Origin: Erysipelotrichaceae bacterium
GTDB lineage: Bacteria > Bacillota_I > Bacilli_A > Erysipelotrichales > Erysipelotrichaceae
Direction of reading: 5' to 3'
NCBI GenBank assembly: GCA_017561055.1
Contig: JAFZDT010000139.1
Location: 1 to 55,058, forward strand
DNA length: 55,058 nt
The translations under genes were made by a program, and so were the position numbers. How positions within the stretch are numbered: the first letter of the stretch is position 1; every line of letters starts with the position of its first letter. Of this stretch, positions 2,645 through 28,454 are shown piece by piece. The notes under the pieces were generated by a model, which was not told the origin of the DNA, did no database searches, and saw only the letters and a program-made list of their open reading frames with translations.

Positions 2645-2706
2645 AAAAAAATTAAAAAAATTTTAAAAAAGTTGTTGACAATATATTTTTATGGTGATAA
2701 TATAAT
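2645..2706 (+). promoter_or_regulatory. Strong sigma-A-type promoter driving the purine-rich RNA locus
   Basis: An A/T-only UP-like tract spans 2645-2670. The -35 is TTGACA at 2675-2680. A 17-nt spacer leads to the extended -10 TGaTAATAT at 2695-2703. An overlapping perfect TATAAT at 2701-2706 would have a 20-nt spacer. The predicted TSS lies in the GGG at 2708-2710. Confidence 0.75.
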
Positions 2707-2771
2707 AGGGCTGCTTCGGGAAGAATGTTCCTAGGTGGCTAAGAGTTATCGAATAGTCGGTATTTCCTAAA

Positions 2772-4298
2772 GCTGAGTAACTAGATCCTAAGGCGCAAGC
2801 TAAGGAGATGAGGTTGTAATTCGTAAGAATGAAGGCTTCGATGCTATGGTAGCTACTGTGAAGCGAGATGGCGTACGGTGAAAGGAATTGCAGTAGGCTG
2901 AGTACCAGAATCGGATGAAAAGCATGGCAACAGGCTGGACGGAAGATGAAGATATGCACCGTGTTAACCGCTACTTGGGGAAACGGGAAGAAGGGAAAAG
3001 AAAGGTAGAAAGCTGAGTAGTCAGAAGCGTACTGAAATGGACGAAAGAAAGTCGAAGGTAAGCTGAAAGGCCGAAAGCGTAAGCATGAGGCAAGCACCTG
3101 TGGAACAGCTGTGGGAGTGAAACAGGGAAGGATGAAAGGAAACAAACAGAATGCCAAGTACTAGAAGCCGGAAGGTTCGCATGGGAAACTAGGTGAATGA
3201 TACGGTGGAAATCGATGAGTCTGAAAGGATGAATCGTAGCACTGGAAATGCCACTGTGAGGCAAGACTAGGAAGAAGGGAACGGAAGAAACAGAATGCTG
3301 AGTAGTTAGAACCTAAAACTGAAGCGGACGAAAGAATGTGGAAGAGGAAGGGGAAAGGCCGAAAGCGCAAGCATAAGGCAAGCACCTGTGGAACGGCTGT
3401 GGGAGTGAAACGGGGAAGGCTGAATGGAAACAAACAGGAAGCTGAGTTCAAGAACCTGGAAGTAAGGCATAAGAGATTAGGCTTGAGAGAAGGGGGAAAT
3501 CGTGAAGGCGAGAGCTAAAACGAGCACTGGTTCAACCACTATGAGGTGAAGCTGGGTAGAGTGGAAAGGAAGAAATAGAGACTGAGTAGTGAGATGCTAA
3601 AGCGGATGTGGACGAAAGGAAGCGGAAGTCATGTGTCTGCCCTAACAAGAAATTGGAATGGGATCGCCTGTGGAACGGCTGCGGGAGCGAAGCAGGGAAG
3701 AACGAAAGGAAACCATCAGTAGTGCCAAGTACAAGAACTAGGATGGAATACATGAGAAATCAGGTAGGAAAGAATGGGGAAGCGTAAGAAGTGAAAACGG
3801 AGGACGTGCACTGAAGTAGCCGCTGTGAGGCGACATCAGGAAGAACTGGAAAGGAAGAAGCAGAAAGCTGAGTAGCTGGAAGTTGAACAGAAGCGGACGA
3901 AAGAATGTGGATGGGAAATGGAAAATATGGAAAGTGAAAACTGGAAGTAAGCACTTGAGGAACGGCTGTGGGAGTGAATCAAGGTAGGGTGAAAGGAAAC
4001 ATACAGTGATGCTGAGTACCGGAAACCAAGAAGGTATGCATGAGAAATCAGGCAGAAGGGAATGGGGAAAACGCAAGAAGCGAAAGCGGAAGGCGAGCAC
4101 TGAAGAAGCCACTGTGAGGCGATATCAGGAAGAAAAGGGAAAAGAAGAAACAGAGGCTGAGTAGTCAGAATCCAAAACTGAAGTGGACGAAAGAAAACTA
4201 AAACAGCGGAGGTCAGAAAGTTGAAAGGAAACGATGTATGTCGTGGAATGGAAGGCCTAGAGAAGTTGGATACGAAAGTTGATAACAAGGGTGAGTCG
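2772..4298 (+). repeat. Tandem array of 11-12 diverged modules (period about 140-145 nt; 285-nt super-repeat of two alternating subtypes)
   Basis: The anchor GCUGAGUA(G/C) or GCCAAGUAC occurs at 2772, 2897, 3012, 3153, 3297, 3441, 3581, 3724, 3867, 4011 and 4156, with a degenerate GGUGAGUCG at 4290. Spacings are 125, 115, 141, 144, 144, 140, 143, 143, 144 and 145 nt. Confidence 0.85.
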
Positions 4299-4365
4299 GA
4301 AGAAGCAGCTGCAGAGATTGAATCCGATGGAAGATGAAAGGAAATTGCAGACGAAGAACAATATG

Positions 4366-4396
4366 AGTCTCAACTGAAAAGTTGAGGCTTTTTTTG
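4366..4396 (+). terminator. Intrinsic terminator of the purine-rich RNA
   Basis: AGUCUCAAC (4366-4374) pairs with GUUGAGGCU (4381-4389). That gives 9 bp including one G-U, a 6-nt loop, then U7. Confidence 0.85.
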
Positions 4397-4493
4397 TGTT
4401 ATAAAGAAGTGTATAGATAAAGACAATATAGTTAGAAAAGTGCTAAAATAAAATTGTAATAACAAATCATGTATTTTAGAAAGGGAATGACAT

Positions 4494-5846
4494 ATGGGTA
4501 GTAATAAAAGTATTAGTATCTTAAGAGATGCGCCTGTTGGAAAGGCTTTGTGGTATTTATCGTTGCCAGCTGTGCTTACAACACTGGTTGGTACAATACA
4601 CAATTTAATTGATGGTATATATGTTAGTTCTCTTAATGATAATGCAATGATTGCGGCAACAACAGTAGCTTTACCGGTAATTGTTGTTTCTGAGGCGATT
4701 GGTGAAGGAATTGGTGTTGGTACTGCTAGTTATTTAGGTAGACTTTTGGGGGCTAAAGATGAAAGTAAGGTTGAACGATTAATTGCGACTTCTATAACTT
4801 TAATGTTTTTAGTTTCAATCATTTTGTTAGTGGCGACAATTGTGTTTTTAAGACCGGTTATATCTTTCTTTACTACCGATCCAATGGTTATTAAGCATTC
4901 ATATGATTATCTTTTAATCTTAATGTGCTCTTCTATTTTTACAATTTCAAAACAAGTAGTTTCTAATATGCTTCGTGCTGCTGGTGATGTGAATTATCCA
5001 ATGAAGATTATTATTGCTAGTATTGTAGTTAATATTGTTTTAAATCCAATATTTATGTTTGATTTTGGTTTTGGATTAAAGATTAGAGGTGCGGCTATTG
5101 CGACAGTTTTAGCTGAAGTATTTGCGTCTTTTGCGATGTTTTATCGTCTTATTTTTAGAGATGATGTAATTAAATGGAGATTAGGTCATTTTGTACTTTG
5201 TATAAATTCCATAAAAGAAATTATTAATGTAGGTATACCAGTATTCATTAGAAATGGATTATCATCAATATCTTATGGTCTATTTGCGAAATCATCTGGT
5301 ATGTTTGGTACAGATTTCTTAGCTGCGAGTGGATTGTCTAGAAAAGGTGAATATTTTTCTCGTTTTGTAATTATGGGAGTTGCGCAAGGATATCAATCAT
5401 TTGCGGCTTATAACTATGGTGCTAAAAATAAACAACGTCTTATGGATGGCTTGAAGATGGCATTGAAGTTTACAATTGGGTATGGCTTCTTGATGGGAGG
5501 GTTCTTCCTATTCTTCCCACATGTTTTCATGCGTATATTAACAAGTGATGCGAATTTGATTGCGCTTGGTAAAAATATGTTAATTGGATATGCGATTTCT
5601 GTTCCGTTTGTTGCGATTTATCAAATTTTAGCTTACAATTTCCAAGCATTAGGAAAAGGTAAATTATCGTTTATTACTTCAGTATTAAGACAAGGAATTG
5701 TATACTGTCCTTTAGTAACTATATTACCTCGTTTATTTGGTATGACAGGAATGATTATTGTACAACCAATTTGTGATTTATGTAGTGCTTTGGTTGTCTT
5801 GTTCTTATCTAGATCTATCATTAAAGAAATACAAGCAATGGAATAA
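4494..5846 (+). CDS. MATE family efflux transporter
   Basis: 450 aa with a 12-TM-like hydrophobic profile. The N-terminus (PVGKALWYLSLPAVLTTLVGTIHNLIDGIYV) is typical of the MatE family. Confidence 0.85.
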   Translation: MGSNKSISILRDAPVGKALWYLSLPAVLTTLVGTIHNLIDGIYVSSLNDNAMIAATTVALPVIVVSEAIGEGIGVGTASYLGRLLGAKDESKVERLIATSITLMFLVSIILLVATIVFLRPVISFFTTDPMVIKHSYDYLLILMCSSIFTISKQVVSNMLRAAGDVNYPMKIIIASIVVNIVLNPIFMFDFGFGLKIRGAAIATVLAEVFASFAMFYRLIFRDDVIKWRLGHFVLCINSIKEIINVGIPVFIRNGLSSISYGLFAKSSGMFGTDFLAASGLSRKGEYFSRFVIMGVAQGYQSFAAYNYGAKNKQRLMDGLKMALKFTIGYGFLMGGFFLFFPHVFMRILTSDANLIALGKNMLIGYAISVPFVAIYQILAYNFQALGKGKLSFITSVLRQGIVYCPLVTILPRLFGMTGMIIVQPICDLCSALVVLFLSRSIIKEIQAME

Positions 5847-15649: not shown

Positions 15650-17005
15650 TTATATTTTAACTATCCAATAACCTGTTTTATTCGAACCGACTCTCTCAAT
15701 TATATTTTTCTTTTTTAGAGAATCAATAATTCTTTGAATCGTTCGAACATTTCGATAAGCTATTTTAGACAAAGAAGCACGTGTAATACATGGATTGGCT
15801 TTAATCTCATCTAATACTAGTTTTTCTAATTCAGAAAGTATTGGCGAATTGTCATTGGTTATGTAATTAGCAGTTGTACTTTTGATGACTAAAGGAAAAT
15901 TTCTTAAGAAATAAAACCAAAAACCATCATATTCTTTTTCATAATATAGTTTAATTGCATTTTTATTACACAAAGTATAGGTTTTTCTAAAACCAGTACC
16001 CCATGTTTCTACAGCATTACACTTAAATAAAACCTCACAAATTAATTCATTTCTAACCTTAGAAGATAAATTTTTATTTACAAAATCTTCAGGAGTATAT
16101 CCATCAGGAAAAGAACCCGGATTATATATAGCGATTTTGCTAGGATGTATATCAATTTCATGTTTACTTAAACTAAGATAATTAGCGTGGGCAAAACTAT
16201 TAATCAATATTTCGCGAAGTGCATCTAAGGGTATCTCAGGAGTTTCTATTCTTTCAAAATTTACAATTTTAGCTTCCCAATTCATATGCTTTTTTATGTA
16301 CTTTTCACATTCTTCAATAAGTATAAATATATTACCTTTTATAGGATTGATATCAATAAAAGTTTGTTTTTCATTAGTAGCAAAAACTGCTAATTTAATA
16401 GTAATTGGATTTTTATTAGAAAATAAAAGTTTTCCAGCATTGTTTAAATGTATACCATCATCCGCAATCAAATGAAGTCTAGATAATAATTCCACTTTAT
16501 CATATTGCATATATGGTAATCTTCCAGAACTTATTGATTTAGCATGAAATAACTGTAATTGGTTTTCGTCGATATCATCTATGGTATTATCAGATGCTTG
16601 ATTTTCCCAATTCGTATAGTTTGTAGATAGAATCATTTCTGTAAGTTCTGATGGAGCAACTTTTCTACTTTCGTCCGCAACCCTTTTGTAATATCTTCCA
16701 TCAGCTGAATATGGTTTTTGATTACCATTAAAACATACTTTAATTACATTTTTATCTTCAATTCGCATTATTTCAATTGTTGGATATATTTGTGGTTTGA
16801 TTTGTTCATAGATTTTTCGAGAAACATCTCGAGTGGTTGATTCACTAATATCCATTCCGCAAATATCACCATTATTTCTAACTCCAAAATATAGTGTGCC
16901 TTTTCCGTGCTTATTCAACATTGCAGTTATATCAATGATAGCTTCATTGAGTTCGGAAGTAGATTTTTTAAATTCTAATAATTCGTTTTCAATGCCTAGA
17001 TTCAT
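15650..17005 (-). CDS. AlbA_2/Schlafen-like (divergent AAA) DNA-binding protein with C-terminal winged HTH
   Basis: The N-terminus E..LEFKKS...A.LN..GG.LYFGV is the AlbA_2 signature. The C-terminus ITRASLSKIAYRNVRTIQRIIDSLKKKNIIERVG looks like a wHTH. This family is often mis-annotated as RecG-like. Confidence 0.75.
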   Translation of the reverse strand: MNLGIENELLEFKKSTSELNEAIIDITAMLNKHGKGTLYFGVRNNGDICGMDISESTTRDVSRKIYEQIKPQIYPTIEIMRIEDKNVIKVCFNGNQKPYSADGRYYKRVADESRKVAPSELTEMILSTNYTNWENQASDNTIDDIDENQLQLFHAKSISSGRLPYMQYDKVELLSRLHLIADDGIHLNNAGKLLFSNKNPITIKLAVFATNEKQTFIDINPIKGNIFILIEECEKYIKKHMNWEAKIVNFERIETPEIPLDALREILINSFAHANYLSLSKHEIDIHPSKIAIYNPGSFPDGYTPEDFVNKNLSSKVRNELICEVLFKCNAVETWGTGFRKTYTLCNKNAIKLYYEKEYDGFWFYFLRNFPLVIKSTTANYITNDNSPILSELEKLVLDEIKANPCITRASLSKIAYRNVRTIQRIIDSLKKKNIIERVGSNKTGYWIVKI

Positions 17006-17039: not shown

Positions 17040-17075
17040 AAATGTCATTATAAATGTCACTATAAATGTCACTAT
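17040..17075. repeat. Three tandem 12-nt direct repeats (AAATGTCAYTAT) in the upstream region of the AlbA_2 gene
   Basis: 17040-17051 is AAATGTCATTAT. 17052-17063 and 17064-17075 are both AAATGTCACTAT. The array starts 35 nt upstream of start codon 17005 on the minus strand. Confidence 0.9.
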
Positions 17076-17245
17076 AAAAACTATTTTTCTTTAGGATTAT
17101 TATACTATAGACAAAAATGAGGAAAGCATAAACGAGAAGTGGCTTCTAGATGCTAAAAATTATTTAACAATCGTATTTCAAGAGTTATAAATAAAATAAT
17201 CATAGTATATAATGATTCTACGAATATAACATGGAGGTATAGTCT

Positions 17246-18469
17246 ATGAAATTTATACATATAGCAGATCTTCATCTAGGGAAATATGTACATGGTTATT
17301 CTATGATAGATAATCAAGATCAAGTATATTGGATAGATGAATTTCTTAAGTTAGTGGAAGAGGAAAAAGTAGATGCAGTATTGATGGCTGGAGATATCTA
17401 TGATCGTAGTATTGCGCCTAAAGAAGCGATTAAGTTGTTTGATTATTTTGTGACATCTTTAGTTAAGTTAGGTGTGGAAGTGTGTATTATTGCTGGAAAT
17501 CATGATAGTGGTGCTAGACTTGCGAGTATGAGTTCAATTTTAAAAGAGCATAAAGTACATATTGTAGGTGATGTAACCAAAGAAGTTGAAAAAGTGGTAT
17601 TTGAAGATGCATATGGAAAAGTAAATGTGTATTTAGTTCCATATCTTTTCCCTGTGGCTGTTGAACAGGTCATAGGTGGTAAATATAAAGACTATAATGA
17701 AGCGATGAAGGCTTTATTGGATGTGCAAGAGATAGATTATTCTATGCGTAATGTTATGGTATCTCATCAATTAGTAACTGTGATGGGTAATGAGCCTGAA
17801 AAAGGTGGTTCTGAAGAAATGGTTGGTGGAGTTGGTGGAATTGATGTATCTGTCTATGAACCTTTTGATTATGTTGCTTTGGGACATATTCATGCCTCAC
17901 AAAAAGTGAAATATGATCATATTCGTTATGCGGGTTCGAATTTATGTTATCACTTTGATGAATTGAAGAAACCTAAAAAAGGTCCATTGGTTGTTGAAAT
18001 TAAAGAAAAAGGAAATATTAATATTCAACAACGTGAAATTCAACCATTGCATAGTTTGCGCCAAGTAGAAGGAACTTTGGATGAGATTATTGAAAATGAA
18101 AAGAATATCACAGAAGGTAATCAATACATTCATGTTGTACTAAAAGATGAGTATGTACCAGTAGGAGCATCAAATAAGCTTGAAGCATTATTTAGTAGTA
18201 AGAATAGTATTCTAATGGATACAGTACATGCGCCTAGTCGTATAGTGAATCATGGAGTAACAAGTCATGAACATATTGAAGAGTTGAGTGTACATGATGC
18301 ATTTATGGAATTTTATAAAGAAAAGAATGCTGGTGAGTATCCTGATGATGTAGATAGTAAAATTATTGAGTTTATTTGTACACAAATTGAAAGTAGTGAA
18401 GATGGTAAAATCGATGAAATGTCTACAGATCAATTAGTGAAGTTTGTTATGGAAATGGGGGAAGAGTAA
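17246..18469 (+). CDS. sbcD: Exonuclease SbcCD, nuclease subunit D
   Basis: Mre11-type phosphoesterase motifs are present (HIADLHLG, GDIYD, AGNHD, GHIH). Confidence 0.93.
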   Translation: MKFIHIADLHLGKYVHGYSMIDNQDQVYWIDEFLKLVEEEKVDAVLMAGDIYDRSIAPKEAIKLFDYFVTSLVKLGVEVCIIAGNHDSGARLASMSSILKEHKVHIVGDVTKEVEKVVFEDAYGKVNVYLVPYLFPVAVEQVIGGKYKDYNEAMKALLDVQEIDYSMRNVMVSHQLVTVMGNEPEKGGSEEMVGGVGGIDVSVYEPFDYVALGHIHASQKVKYDHIRYAGSNLCYHFDELKKPKKGPLVVEIKEKGNINIQQREIQPLHSLRQVEGTLDEIIENEKNITEGNQYIHVVLKDEYVPVGASNKLEALFSSKNSILMDTVHAPSRIVNHGVTSHEHIEELSVHDAFMEFYKEKNAGEYPDDVDSKIIEFICTQIESSEDGKIDEMSTDQLVKFVMEMGEE

Positions 18470-27725: not shown

Positions 27726-28454
27726 ATGGCAAATAATAAGAGTTTAGATTTAAAAGACATTATCAATGTAGCGACTGCTTTATCACAACAAGAACAATCA
27801 AATAATAAGAATCAATCAATTAAGATGGTTTCTGCGTTAAGTTCACTTGTGAAAGCGCCTGAAAAAGAAGAAGAGGAAGAAGAAAAATCTGTTTCATCTT
27901 TATTACAAGCTGCGAAAACAGATGCAAAGGATACAAATATTATTTCTAATTTATTAGAAAATCTTGGTTTGAGTAAGAGTCAAGAAAAGCAAGAAGAAGA
28001 GGAATTGATTGCTTTATTAGAAAGCAAGGGATACAGTGTTGATAAAGAATCAGCAATTGATACTGGTGCTGTTTCTGCAGCATTAGTTGCTTTAGCTGCT
28101 TATGCAAAAGAAAATGACTTGTTGGATAAGATTGCGGATTTATTTGAAGAAGAAACTAAGAAAAAGAAAAAAACAACTAAGAAAAAATCAACGACAAAGA
28201 AATCAACAGCTAAAAAAACTACAACCAAGAAGTCAACAACTGCTAAAAAATCTACGGCTAAGAAATCAACAACAGCTAAAAAGACAACAGCTAAGAAGAG
28301 TACTTCTACTGCTAAAAAATCTACAGCCAAGAAGAGTACAACTGCTAAAAAAACAAGTACAGCCAAAAAGTCTACAACTACAAAGAAATCAACTACAGCT
28401 AAAAAGACAACAGCTGCAAAGAAAACTACAACTAAAAAATCTACGAAGAAATAA
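27726..28454 (+). CDS. Bipartite protein with an acidic N-terminal half and a Lys/Thr/Ser/Ala-repeat basic tail (histone-H1-like composition)
   Basis: 242 aa with E-runs (EKEEEEEEK, QEKQEEEEL). About 100 C-terminal residues consist of (S/T)T(A)KK units. SD AAGGAG lies upstream. Confidence 0.7.
   Translation: MANNKSLDLKDIINVATALSQQEQSNNKNQSIKMVSALSSLVKAPEKEEEEEEKSVSSLLQAAKTDAKDTNIISNLLENLGLSKSQEKQEEEELIALLESKGYSVDKESAIDTGAVSAALVALAAYAKENDLLDKIADLFEEETKKKKKTTKKKSTTKKSTAKKTTTKKSTTAKKSTAKKSTTAKKTTAKKSTSTAKKSTAKKSTTAKKTSTAKKSTTTKKSTTAKKTTAAKKTTTKKSTKK
28160..28451 (+). repeat. Imperfect in-frame tandem repeats encoding the (S/T)TAKK tail
   Basis: Recurrent units such as GCTAAAAAATCTAC(A/G)GC(C/T)AAGAA(G/A) are visible by eye. 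They generate artefactual ORFs in the other frame and on the other strand. Confidence 0.85.

Follow-up and report, generated by a model that had tools for sequence, protein, structure and literature searches.

The window analysed here, positions 1–55,058 of contig JAFZDT010000139.1 of an Erysipelotrichaceae bacterium (assembly GCA_017561055.1), carries an alanine-dehydrogenase gene at 1414–2601 and a MatE gene at 4494–5846. Between them, from about 2710 to 4397 on the forward (+) strand, lies a stretch that, judged by its composition, its signals and its homologues, is a stand-alone, purine-rich, GC-rich structured non-coding RNA (ncRNA) gene. It is about 1.69 kb long and comprises 12 tandem domains. 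Our subject is the last hairpin arm of these domains, which we call H3, and the pseudoknot that its loop is likely to form with the linker between its own domain and the following one. A promoter-like site, TTGACA-17-TAATAT with a TG upstream of TAATAT, is found at 2675–2703 (+), and an intrinsic terminator hairpin followed by a U-tract at 4365–4390 (+). Strong promoter sites and a terminator also accompany the homologues at loci L087 and L116. The GC content of the ncRNA is 0.46–0.50, against a window mean of 0.32, and its purine content is 0.70–0.75; it is the sole outlier in GC and purines in the 55 kb. It holds no long open reading frame (ORF) in a consistent frame.

Does this stretch belong to a known RNA family? 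Rfam 15 gave no match anywhere in the window at gathering thresholds, and only chance-level matches (E ≥ 0.44) between 2600 and 4450 when E was relaxed to ≤ 10. In 34 homologous loci the Rfam covariance models placed nothing inside the ncRNA. A search of the full-text literature, raw sequence strings included, found no description of it in what is searchable.

Homologous loci, 49 in number, were retrieved from metagenome-assembled genomes (MAGs) of Oscillospiraceae, Erysipelotrichaceae and Lachnospiraceae and from gut metagenomes. A scan of a genome collection with the most conserved 20-mer returned at least 119 loci, in 24 of which nhmmer found the ncRNA; a metagenome scan added 13 further loci, and 12 more came from contigs encoding the antisense ‘proteins’ discussed below and from one contig with the window's own Ald protein. 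The sequences compared are both paralogues and orthologues of one another.

The 12 domains of the window's ncRNA, each about 115–145 nt long, are marked by an ‘anchor’ motif that starts at 2772, 2897, 3012, 3153, 3297, 3441, 3581, 3724, 3867, 4011, 4156 and 4290. Well-sampled domains are closed by a helix, P1, in which the GCUGAGUA anchor pairs with a downstream GAAAGG; the consensus of the 5′ strand is G-C-Y-R-A-G-U-A-N-N and that of the 3′ strand N-N-G-A-A-A-G-G. For the internal domains of type II we built alignment A2, which holds 80 unique half-modules, and ranked all 13,530 of its column pairs by a G-test with average product correction. A three-module MAFFT alignment had misaligned the variable-length linker and produced spurious associations; A2 and nearest-neighbour checks were used instead. 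The states of loop and tail were taken from alignments, a regular-expression reading of them being register-sensitive.

In A2, columns 2–3 and 9–10 of the anchor pair with columns 134–135 and 140–141 of a GGAAAGG tail around an AGUA/GAA internal loop. All four of these pairs (2:141, 3:140, 9:135 and 10:134) covary; 2:141 is paired in 80 of 80 sequences, and 3:140 is CG in 54, UA in 12 and UG in 11. Within the internal loop the non-Watson–Crick pair 4:139 covaries as well (G·A 58, A·C 13 and A·A 8 of 80; in the window, for example, 3156 with 3282). One P1 of the window joins the anchor CCAAGUACU at 3154–3162 (+) to 3277–3284; the remaining type II domains have theirs at 3442–3450/3562–3569, 3725–3733/3847–3854 and 4012–4020/4137–4144. 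Three further purine–purine column pairs (14:57, 25:46 and 69:82) flip from AG to GA, a switch that suggests conserved sheared pairs.

P1 encloses three arms, two of which are capped by GNRA tetraloops. The first, Pa (16–18:53–55), leads to Pb (27–33:38–44) with a GAAA or GAGA cap; the second, H2, is likewise capped by GAAA or GAGA. The third is H3, consisting of a 4-bp outer stem, an internal loop of roughly 4 × 4 nt, a 3-bp inner stem and a 7-nt loop R-C-U-G-N-R-A. Over the 28 pairs modelled, 91.8% of the cells are paired, against 78.0% after shuffling and 20–42% in slid registers, and 25 of the 28 pairs show double changes. The same arms were recovered by RNAalifold and by the minimum-free-energy fold of domain 10 as a single sequence (z = −3.29). 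This topology is shared by type I modules (78 sequences): here too a GAAAGG tail pairs with the anchor, at 10:123 (UA 38, CG 37) and 11:122, and the last arm has the form CCUGU[...GCUGYGGGAG...]ACAGG. The most conserved element of the ncRNA, GGAACRGCUGYGGGAGYGAA, lies in type I domains at 3099–3126, 3387–3414, 3669–3696 and 3956–3983, enclosed by a covarying 5-bp stem that is CCUGU/ACAGG or, at 3951–3955/3982–3986, CUUGA/UCAAG.

Might the repeats be something other than a structured RNA, either a tandem repeat maintained at the DNA level or a degenerate coding repeat, for example of the minus-strand ORFs? With about 285 bp to a repeat, one unit comes to roughly 95 codons, and the pyrimidine-rich antisense strand does carry ORFs of 73–164 aa (window 2663–4288, −). 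A protein search with one such spurious ORF found 45 clusters of similar ‘proteins’ (P0001–P0045) in the ENA and Logan metagenome sets. But none of the 45 has a Pfam domain or a name; successive units are spaced by 285, 284, 286 and 289 nt; and where ORFs overlap, their frames differ. The compensatory changes in 25 of 28 pairs speak against coding too, as do the 75 G–U wobble cells in the structure model of the + strand, which would be C·A mismatches on the other strand; these cells place the constraint at the level of the RNA and on the + strand. It is this strand, moreover, that is bracketed by promoter and terminator. We regard a reading without a structured RNA as scarcely credible. Every contig that was fetched for an antisense ‘protein’ carries the ncRNA, and these ‘proteins’ are very probably artefacts of gene calling. 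In public metagenome data this concerns at least 45 clusters annotated as ‘hypothetical proteins’, which can now be flagged as spurious.

What is the standing of the hairpin itself? The sequence-only reading, made on this DNA beforehand, had listed five copies of a 3-bp stem with a 7-nt loop. All five read as listed: GCUACUGUGAAGC at 2852–2864, GCCACUGUGAGGC at 3250–3262 and 4108–4120, ACCACUAUGAGGU at 3535–3547 and GCCGCUGUGAGGC at 3819–3831 (all +). The degenerate pattern RYYRCTRTGARRY matches only these five sites on both strands of the 55 kb; dinucleotide shuffles gave 0.40 ± 0.60 matches, and none of 100 reached five. The list was nevertheless incomplete, as homologous arms with other loops occur in domain 2 and in the last domain. 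Nor do all five belong to type II modules, as had been supposed. Four do, but the copy at 2852 sits in domain 1, in the same architectural position. A six-sequence MAFFT alignment had set this copy apart as non-homologous by placing it on the type I loop; the alignment of domain 1 from 16 loci (A4) identifies it as the H3 arm.

The 3-bp stem first noticed is the apical, inner stem of H3. Beneath it lies the covarying 4-bp outer stem, which had been overlooked. The claim of compensatory changes in the inner stem holds, for double changes occur in all three of its pairs among the 80 modules: 102:117 is GC in 65, AU in 8 and GU in 1; 105:116 is CG in 70 and UA in 9; and 106:115 is CG in 57 and A·G in 21, about one quarter. 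The outer stem (columns 94–97:122–125) is 99–100% paired at three positions, and its pair 95:124 is CG in 42, UA in 29 and UG in 8. Double changes are found at all seven H3 pairs, in 67 cells, a result that none of 500 shuffles reached. The proportion of paired cells is 90.3%, against 79.2% in shuffles (0/500) and 18–44% in slid controls. Among the 13,530 column pairs the H3 pairs rank 6th, 8th, 9th, 13th and 26th, the inner stem accounting for the 9th and the 26th. RNAalifold predicts the H3 stem independently. In domain 1 (A4) the inner stem is GCU/AGC, GCC/GGC or GUC/GAC, and the outer stem reads GCUG/CAGC, with GCUA/UGGC as the window's version. We conclude from these covariations that both H3 stems form.

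The H3 arms of the window (all +) can be specified as follows. In domain 1 (2843–2872) the outer stem is 2843–2846/2869–2872, the inner stem 2852–2854/2862–2864 and the loop ACUGUGA 2855–2861. In domain 2 (2959–2986) the outer stem CCGU/ACGG is at 2959–2962/2983–2986, the inner stem CC/GG at 2968–2969/2977–2978 and the loop GCUACUU at 2970–2976. The four type II arms are those of domain 4 (3242–3270; outer CUGG/CUAG 3242–3245/3267–3270, inner GCC/GGC 3250–3252/3260–3262, loop 3253–3259), domain 6 (3527–3555; outer CUGG/CUGG 3527–3530/3552–3555, inner ACC/GGU 3535–3537/3545–3547, loop ACUAUGA 3538–3544), domain 8 (3811–3839; outer CUGA/UCAG 3811–3814/3836–3839, inner GCC/GGC 3819–3821/3829–3831, loop GCUGUGA 3822–3828) and domain 10 (4100–4128; outer CUGA/UCAG 4100–4103/4125–4128, inner GCC/GGC 4108–4110/4118–4120, loop 4111–4117).

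If H3 is a conserved hairpin, with what does its loop interact? The loop C-U-G(-N) is complementary to (N-)C-A-G of the short, A-rich linker between domains, a block that lies just 3′ of its own domain's P1 and 2–4 nt 5′ of the P1 of the next. Such a pairing had been proposed by the sequence-only reading, and its four type II blocks are where it put them. ACAG at 3290–3293 faces the loop CUGU at 3254–3257, and ACAG at 4150–4153 the loop CUGU at 4112–4115; GCAG at 3860–3863 faces CUGU at 3823–3826 with a U·G at pair 4; and AUAG at 3575–3578 faces CUAU at 3539–3542 with a compensatory change from G–C to A–U (all +). This last correspondence, of a loop G-to-A change with a tail C-to-U change, is borne out in A2, where A at column 110 and U at column 148 each occur in a single sequence, the same one for both. 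The alternative partner suggested for this loop, a UAG pairing with CUA, does exist, though at 3557–3559; 3555–3558, where it had been placed, reads GGUA.

The support from type II is modest, because the loop there is almost invariant. In A2, 95.6% of the pseudoknot cells are paired, and two pairs (four cells) show double changes, as many as appeared in 3 of 500 shuffles for one measure and in 0 of 500 for the other; slid-register controls had no double changes. Among 109 unique type II modules, pair 1 is CG in 105 of 108; pair 2 is UA in 106 and UG in 3; pair 3 is GC in 104, AU in 1 and GU in 1; and pair 4 is UA in 84, UG in 10, CG in 3 and A·A in 9. All three modules with a loop C at pair 4 have G in the tail (hypergeometric P = 0.0014). 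Each of these CUGC/GCAG modules is nearest to CUGU/ACAG modules, with 90–96% identity, so that the three double changes are independent; one has a CUGU/GCAG sister, the expected U·G intermediate.

The decisive case is domain 2, because its loop differs between lineages. Alignment A3 comprises this domain (window 2897–3011) from 17 loci. In the window the loop CUAC at 2971–2974 (+) is fully complementary to GUAG at 3005–3008 (+). The other loop/tail combinations are CUGC/GCAG at five loci (L087, L081, L029, L047 and L131), CUGA/UCAG at two (L003 and L054), CCGU/GCGG at L059, CCGU/ACGG at L137, CCGA/ACGG at seven loci and CCGC/ACGG at L121. In A3, 88.2% of the cells are paired. Every sequence has a Watson–Crick pair at pair 2, CG in nine and UA in eight; at pair 3 the window has changed from G–C to AU; and pair 4 is CG in six, AU in two and UG in one. 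Double changes thus affect three of the four pairs, while every slid register has none, and the covariation score is 0.386, against 0.183 after shuffling (0/500). The linker upstream of domain 2 is an invariant GCAG, which leaves the linker downstream as the necessary partner of this variable loop. That upstream block, at 2890–2893 (+), is itself the partner of the domain 1 loop CUGU at 2856–2859, with U·G at pair 4; being invariant across loci, it is uninformative on its own. The remaining pair is served by the last domain, whose loop CUGC at 4309–4312 (+) is complementary to GCAG at 4347–4350. Here L059 departs from the CUGY/GCAG of 20 others by having AUGC/GCAU, and so shows compensation at pair 1. 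With orthologues included, then, a compensatory change is found somewhere at each of the four pairs, and the shuffle tests on H3 and on the domain 2 loop and tail, at 0/500 each, uphold the covariation on which the proposal depended. From these alignments the pseudoknot is a 3-bp core with a facultative fourth pair, which is U–A, U–G, C–G, A–U or an A·A mismatch.

Could NCAG instead find a local partner in the CUG of the anchor that follows, forming a CAG-N2–4-CUG mini-hairpin? The two are complementary in every domain, and the tail variants UAG and CGG still pair with the anchor through G–U. The anchor's C-Y, however, is already taken up by the P1 of the domain that it opens, a helix with strong covariation, and the mini-hairpin's loop would have only 2–4 nt. 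Such a hairpin leaves unexplained why tail position 1 tracks loop position 4 and why U–A changes to C–G on both sides. We judge it very improbable.

A more serious objection is that the hairpin is real while the complementarity of loop and tail is incidental. The loop would be kept for a T-loop-like or other fold, or for a protein or ligand, NCAG would be a linker or processing element, and the joint changes would stem from shared ancestry. The loop U and the last A are indeed nearly invariant, a flanking R·A pair (AA 50, GA 27) suggests a structured loop, the majority of the pseudoknot cells are invariant, and pair 4 is often mismatched. Against this, joint changes that preserve Watson–Crick pairing affect every one of the four positions, and they are seen in independent lineages and in three types of domain; the U·G intermediate is observed; and slid registers contain no double changes. 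We therefore think incidental complementarity improbable, if less so than the mini-hairpin.

Several observations do weigh against the hairpin and its pseudoknot, and the former are best taken first. As isolated arms the H3 sequences fold into two-stem hairpins with an open 7-nt loop at −6.2 to −9.4 kcal/mol, not significantly more stable than shuffles (z = −0.4 to −2.0), so that the evidence for the hairpin is comparative and not thermodynamic. The kinship of paralogues and orthologues means that the shuffle statistics overstate significance. The pseudoknot has only 3–4 bp, with a core that in most domains is invariant and so uninformative. At pair 4, A·A arose at least four times without compensation (9 of 109 type II modules), and in domain 2 A·A or C·A is found in 8 of 17 sequences, A·A being the rule in one clade. 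Two modules have A at loop position 1 facing an unchanged G. The switch of domain 2 from U–A to C–G may be a single, clade-splitting event. In type I, finally, loop C at position 4 is accompanied by tail A (10), U (7) or G (3), and the loop GCUGYGGGAG shows no covariation with its linker at that position. These points taken together with the rest, the hairpin with its loop–linker pseudoknot remains the likely explanation.

What might the pseudoknot do? It would tie the tip of H3 to the base of the domain to which the arm belongs, so that the arm folds back. As the linker abuts the next P1, the contact would also fix the relative orientation of consecutive domains, and the two GNRA loops of each domain would be available for tertiary docking into a compact, repeated superstructure. 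A transcript of ‘beads on a string’ could in this way become rigid, and might act as a multivalent scaffold or sponge for some partner. The probable role of the pseudoknot would be to secure every domain and to determine the geometry from one domain to the next.

How does this contact compare with those of known RNAs? In the SAM-I riboswitch the loop of P2 pairs with J3/4, a pseudoknot between a hairpin loop and a junction. Loop–junction pseudoknots of this kind resemble ours in being Watson–Crick helices of 3–4 bp, backed by covariation, between the loop of an arm and a single strand beside the closing helix. Unlike theirs, the single strand of the ncRNA belongs not to the domain but to the linker that connects it with the following homologous domain; one transcript has about 10–12 such contacts, and no ligand or expression platform is evident. 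A tandem riboswitch or other cis-regulatory leader also fails to account for the gene, which has its own terminator and no conserved downstream gene; in different loci it is followed by unrelated MATE, FemAB, DUF3854, tRNA and 5S genes.

The closing helix has its own counterpart. The signature AGUA/GAA, the covarying Watson–Crick flanks and the covarying G·A or A·C pair are shared with loop E and the sarcin–ricin loop (helix IV of 5S rRNA; the sarcin–ricin loop of 23S rRNA). In the anchor A5, G6 and U7 are invariant and A8 is present in at least 90%, the tail is GGAAAGG or GGAACGG, and the flanks covary. By these features the anchor and tail form a loop-E/sarcin–ricin-like motif, set here in the closing helix of the domains. 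The modules are not 5S homologues, and no RF00001 match falls in the ncRNA.

Among large RNAs, OLE, GOLLD, ROOL, raiA and HEARO resemble it as stand-alone structured RNAs of kilobase scale, found in Bacillota and in gut and rumen metagenomes, with an abundance of GNRA loops and non-canonical motifs. No covariance model of these five matches the ncRNA. OLE, GOLLD and ROOL, large and ornate, are homo-oligomers that multimerise in trans, according to PMC12286853. RNAs of that type are single, non-repetitive folds, whereas in the ncRNA homologous domains follow one another in tandem within one molecule, in numbers that vary. The sponges CsrB and RsmZ, and tandem aptamer arrays, have many repeated units per transcript, as it does, which suggests multivalent binding; its units, however, are multi-arm domains of roughly 140 nt rather than short GGA hairpins. 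We rejected a CsrA sponge, since the hairpin loops are GAAA/GAGA or RCUGNRA and lack GGA, which is found mainly in junction and P1 strands. A bacterial ncRNA of 8–12 tandem homologous multi-arm domains appears to be a new architecture.

The carriers of the ncRNA are MAGs labelled Oscillospiraceae, Erysipelotrichaceae or Erysipelotrichales, Lachnospiraceae and Clostridiales, mostly from the guts of ruminants. A phage origin is unsupported, a scan of viral contigs having given no match. The neighbouring protein genes vary from locus to locus. The ncRNA is shortest in L095, at about 0.9 kb, and longest in L087 and L003, at about 1.9 kb, and the number of its internal type I plus type II units varies accordingly. 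In short, this ncRNA has a free-standing gene, whose size and count of internal units differ between loci. Some MAGs have two or three copies on separate contigs (L081 and L087; L049 and L059; L025, L077 and L112), and many contigs end within the ncRNA, probably because of its internal repeats.

In some lineages the ncRNA lies in or beside genes for stable RNAs. At L095:640–2191 (−) a complete short homologue of about 900 nt is situated between the 3′ end of 23S rRNA and tRNA-Lys, tRNA-Glu and 5S rRNA. The sequence read from the intervals between these genes shows no evident U-tract terminator, so that this copy appears to be co-transcribed within the rRNA operon. Elsewhere the ncRNA is followed by tRNA-Lys and tRNA-Glu (L059:7300–7693) or by a promoter and 5S rRNA (L065:1–420), or it lies downstream of tmRNA (L131:1–400) or of tRNA-Gln (L054:1614–1689). 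Because the ncRNA is embedded in or beside rRNA, tRNA and tmRNA genes in these lineages, a link to translation is conceivable. We offer as a tentative possibility, and a rather doubtful one, that the ncRNA is an ‘intramolecular multimer’: its 8–12 homologous multi-arm (four-way-junction-like) domains, closed by loop E and latched by pseudoknots, would form one large quasi-symmetric particle or filament with a function linked to translation, for example by storing or scaffolding, in multivalent fashion, a ribosomal protein or one that binds loop E, for which bL25/Ctc would be a candidate.

Few large structured bacterial RNAs without known function have been described, and every one of them has brought some surprise in biology or architecture. 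The ncRNA stands out among them in being widespread in gut and rumen Firmicutes and in being built of tandem homologous domains whose copy number varies with the species. The hairpin and its likely loop–linker pseudoknot are its first concrete, testable tertiary contact, and they define the boundaries of its domains. The contact suggests how successive domains are oriented and provides a handle for mutate-and-rescue experiments.

A few minor observations may be added. We considered an 11-nt GAAA-tetraloop receptor in domain 1, formed by CCUAAG (2787–2792) and UAUGG (2845–2849), and rejected it, as these are not kept in homologues. Most homologues have CCUAAA and CUGAGG or CUGAAG at the receptor-like site, and the match in the window is probably fortuitous. 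Elsewhere in the window a 242-aa ORF at 27726–28454 (+) ends in 100 residues of a low-complexity (A/T)KKST repeat, to which the Tandem Repeats Finder arrays at 28164–28432 are due. At 17040–17078, between the divergent ORFs 15650–17005 (−) and 17246–18469 (+), the 12-nt unit AAATGTCACTAT is repeated 3.2 times with a 96% match; this array may be operator-like.

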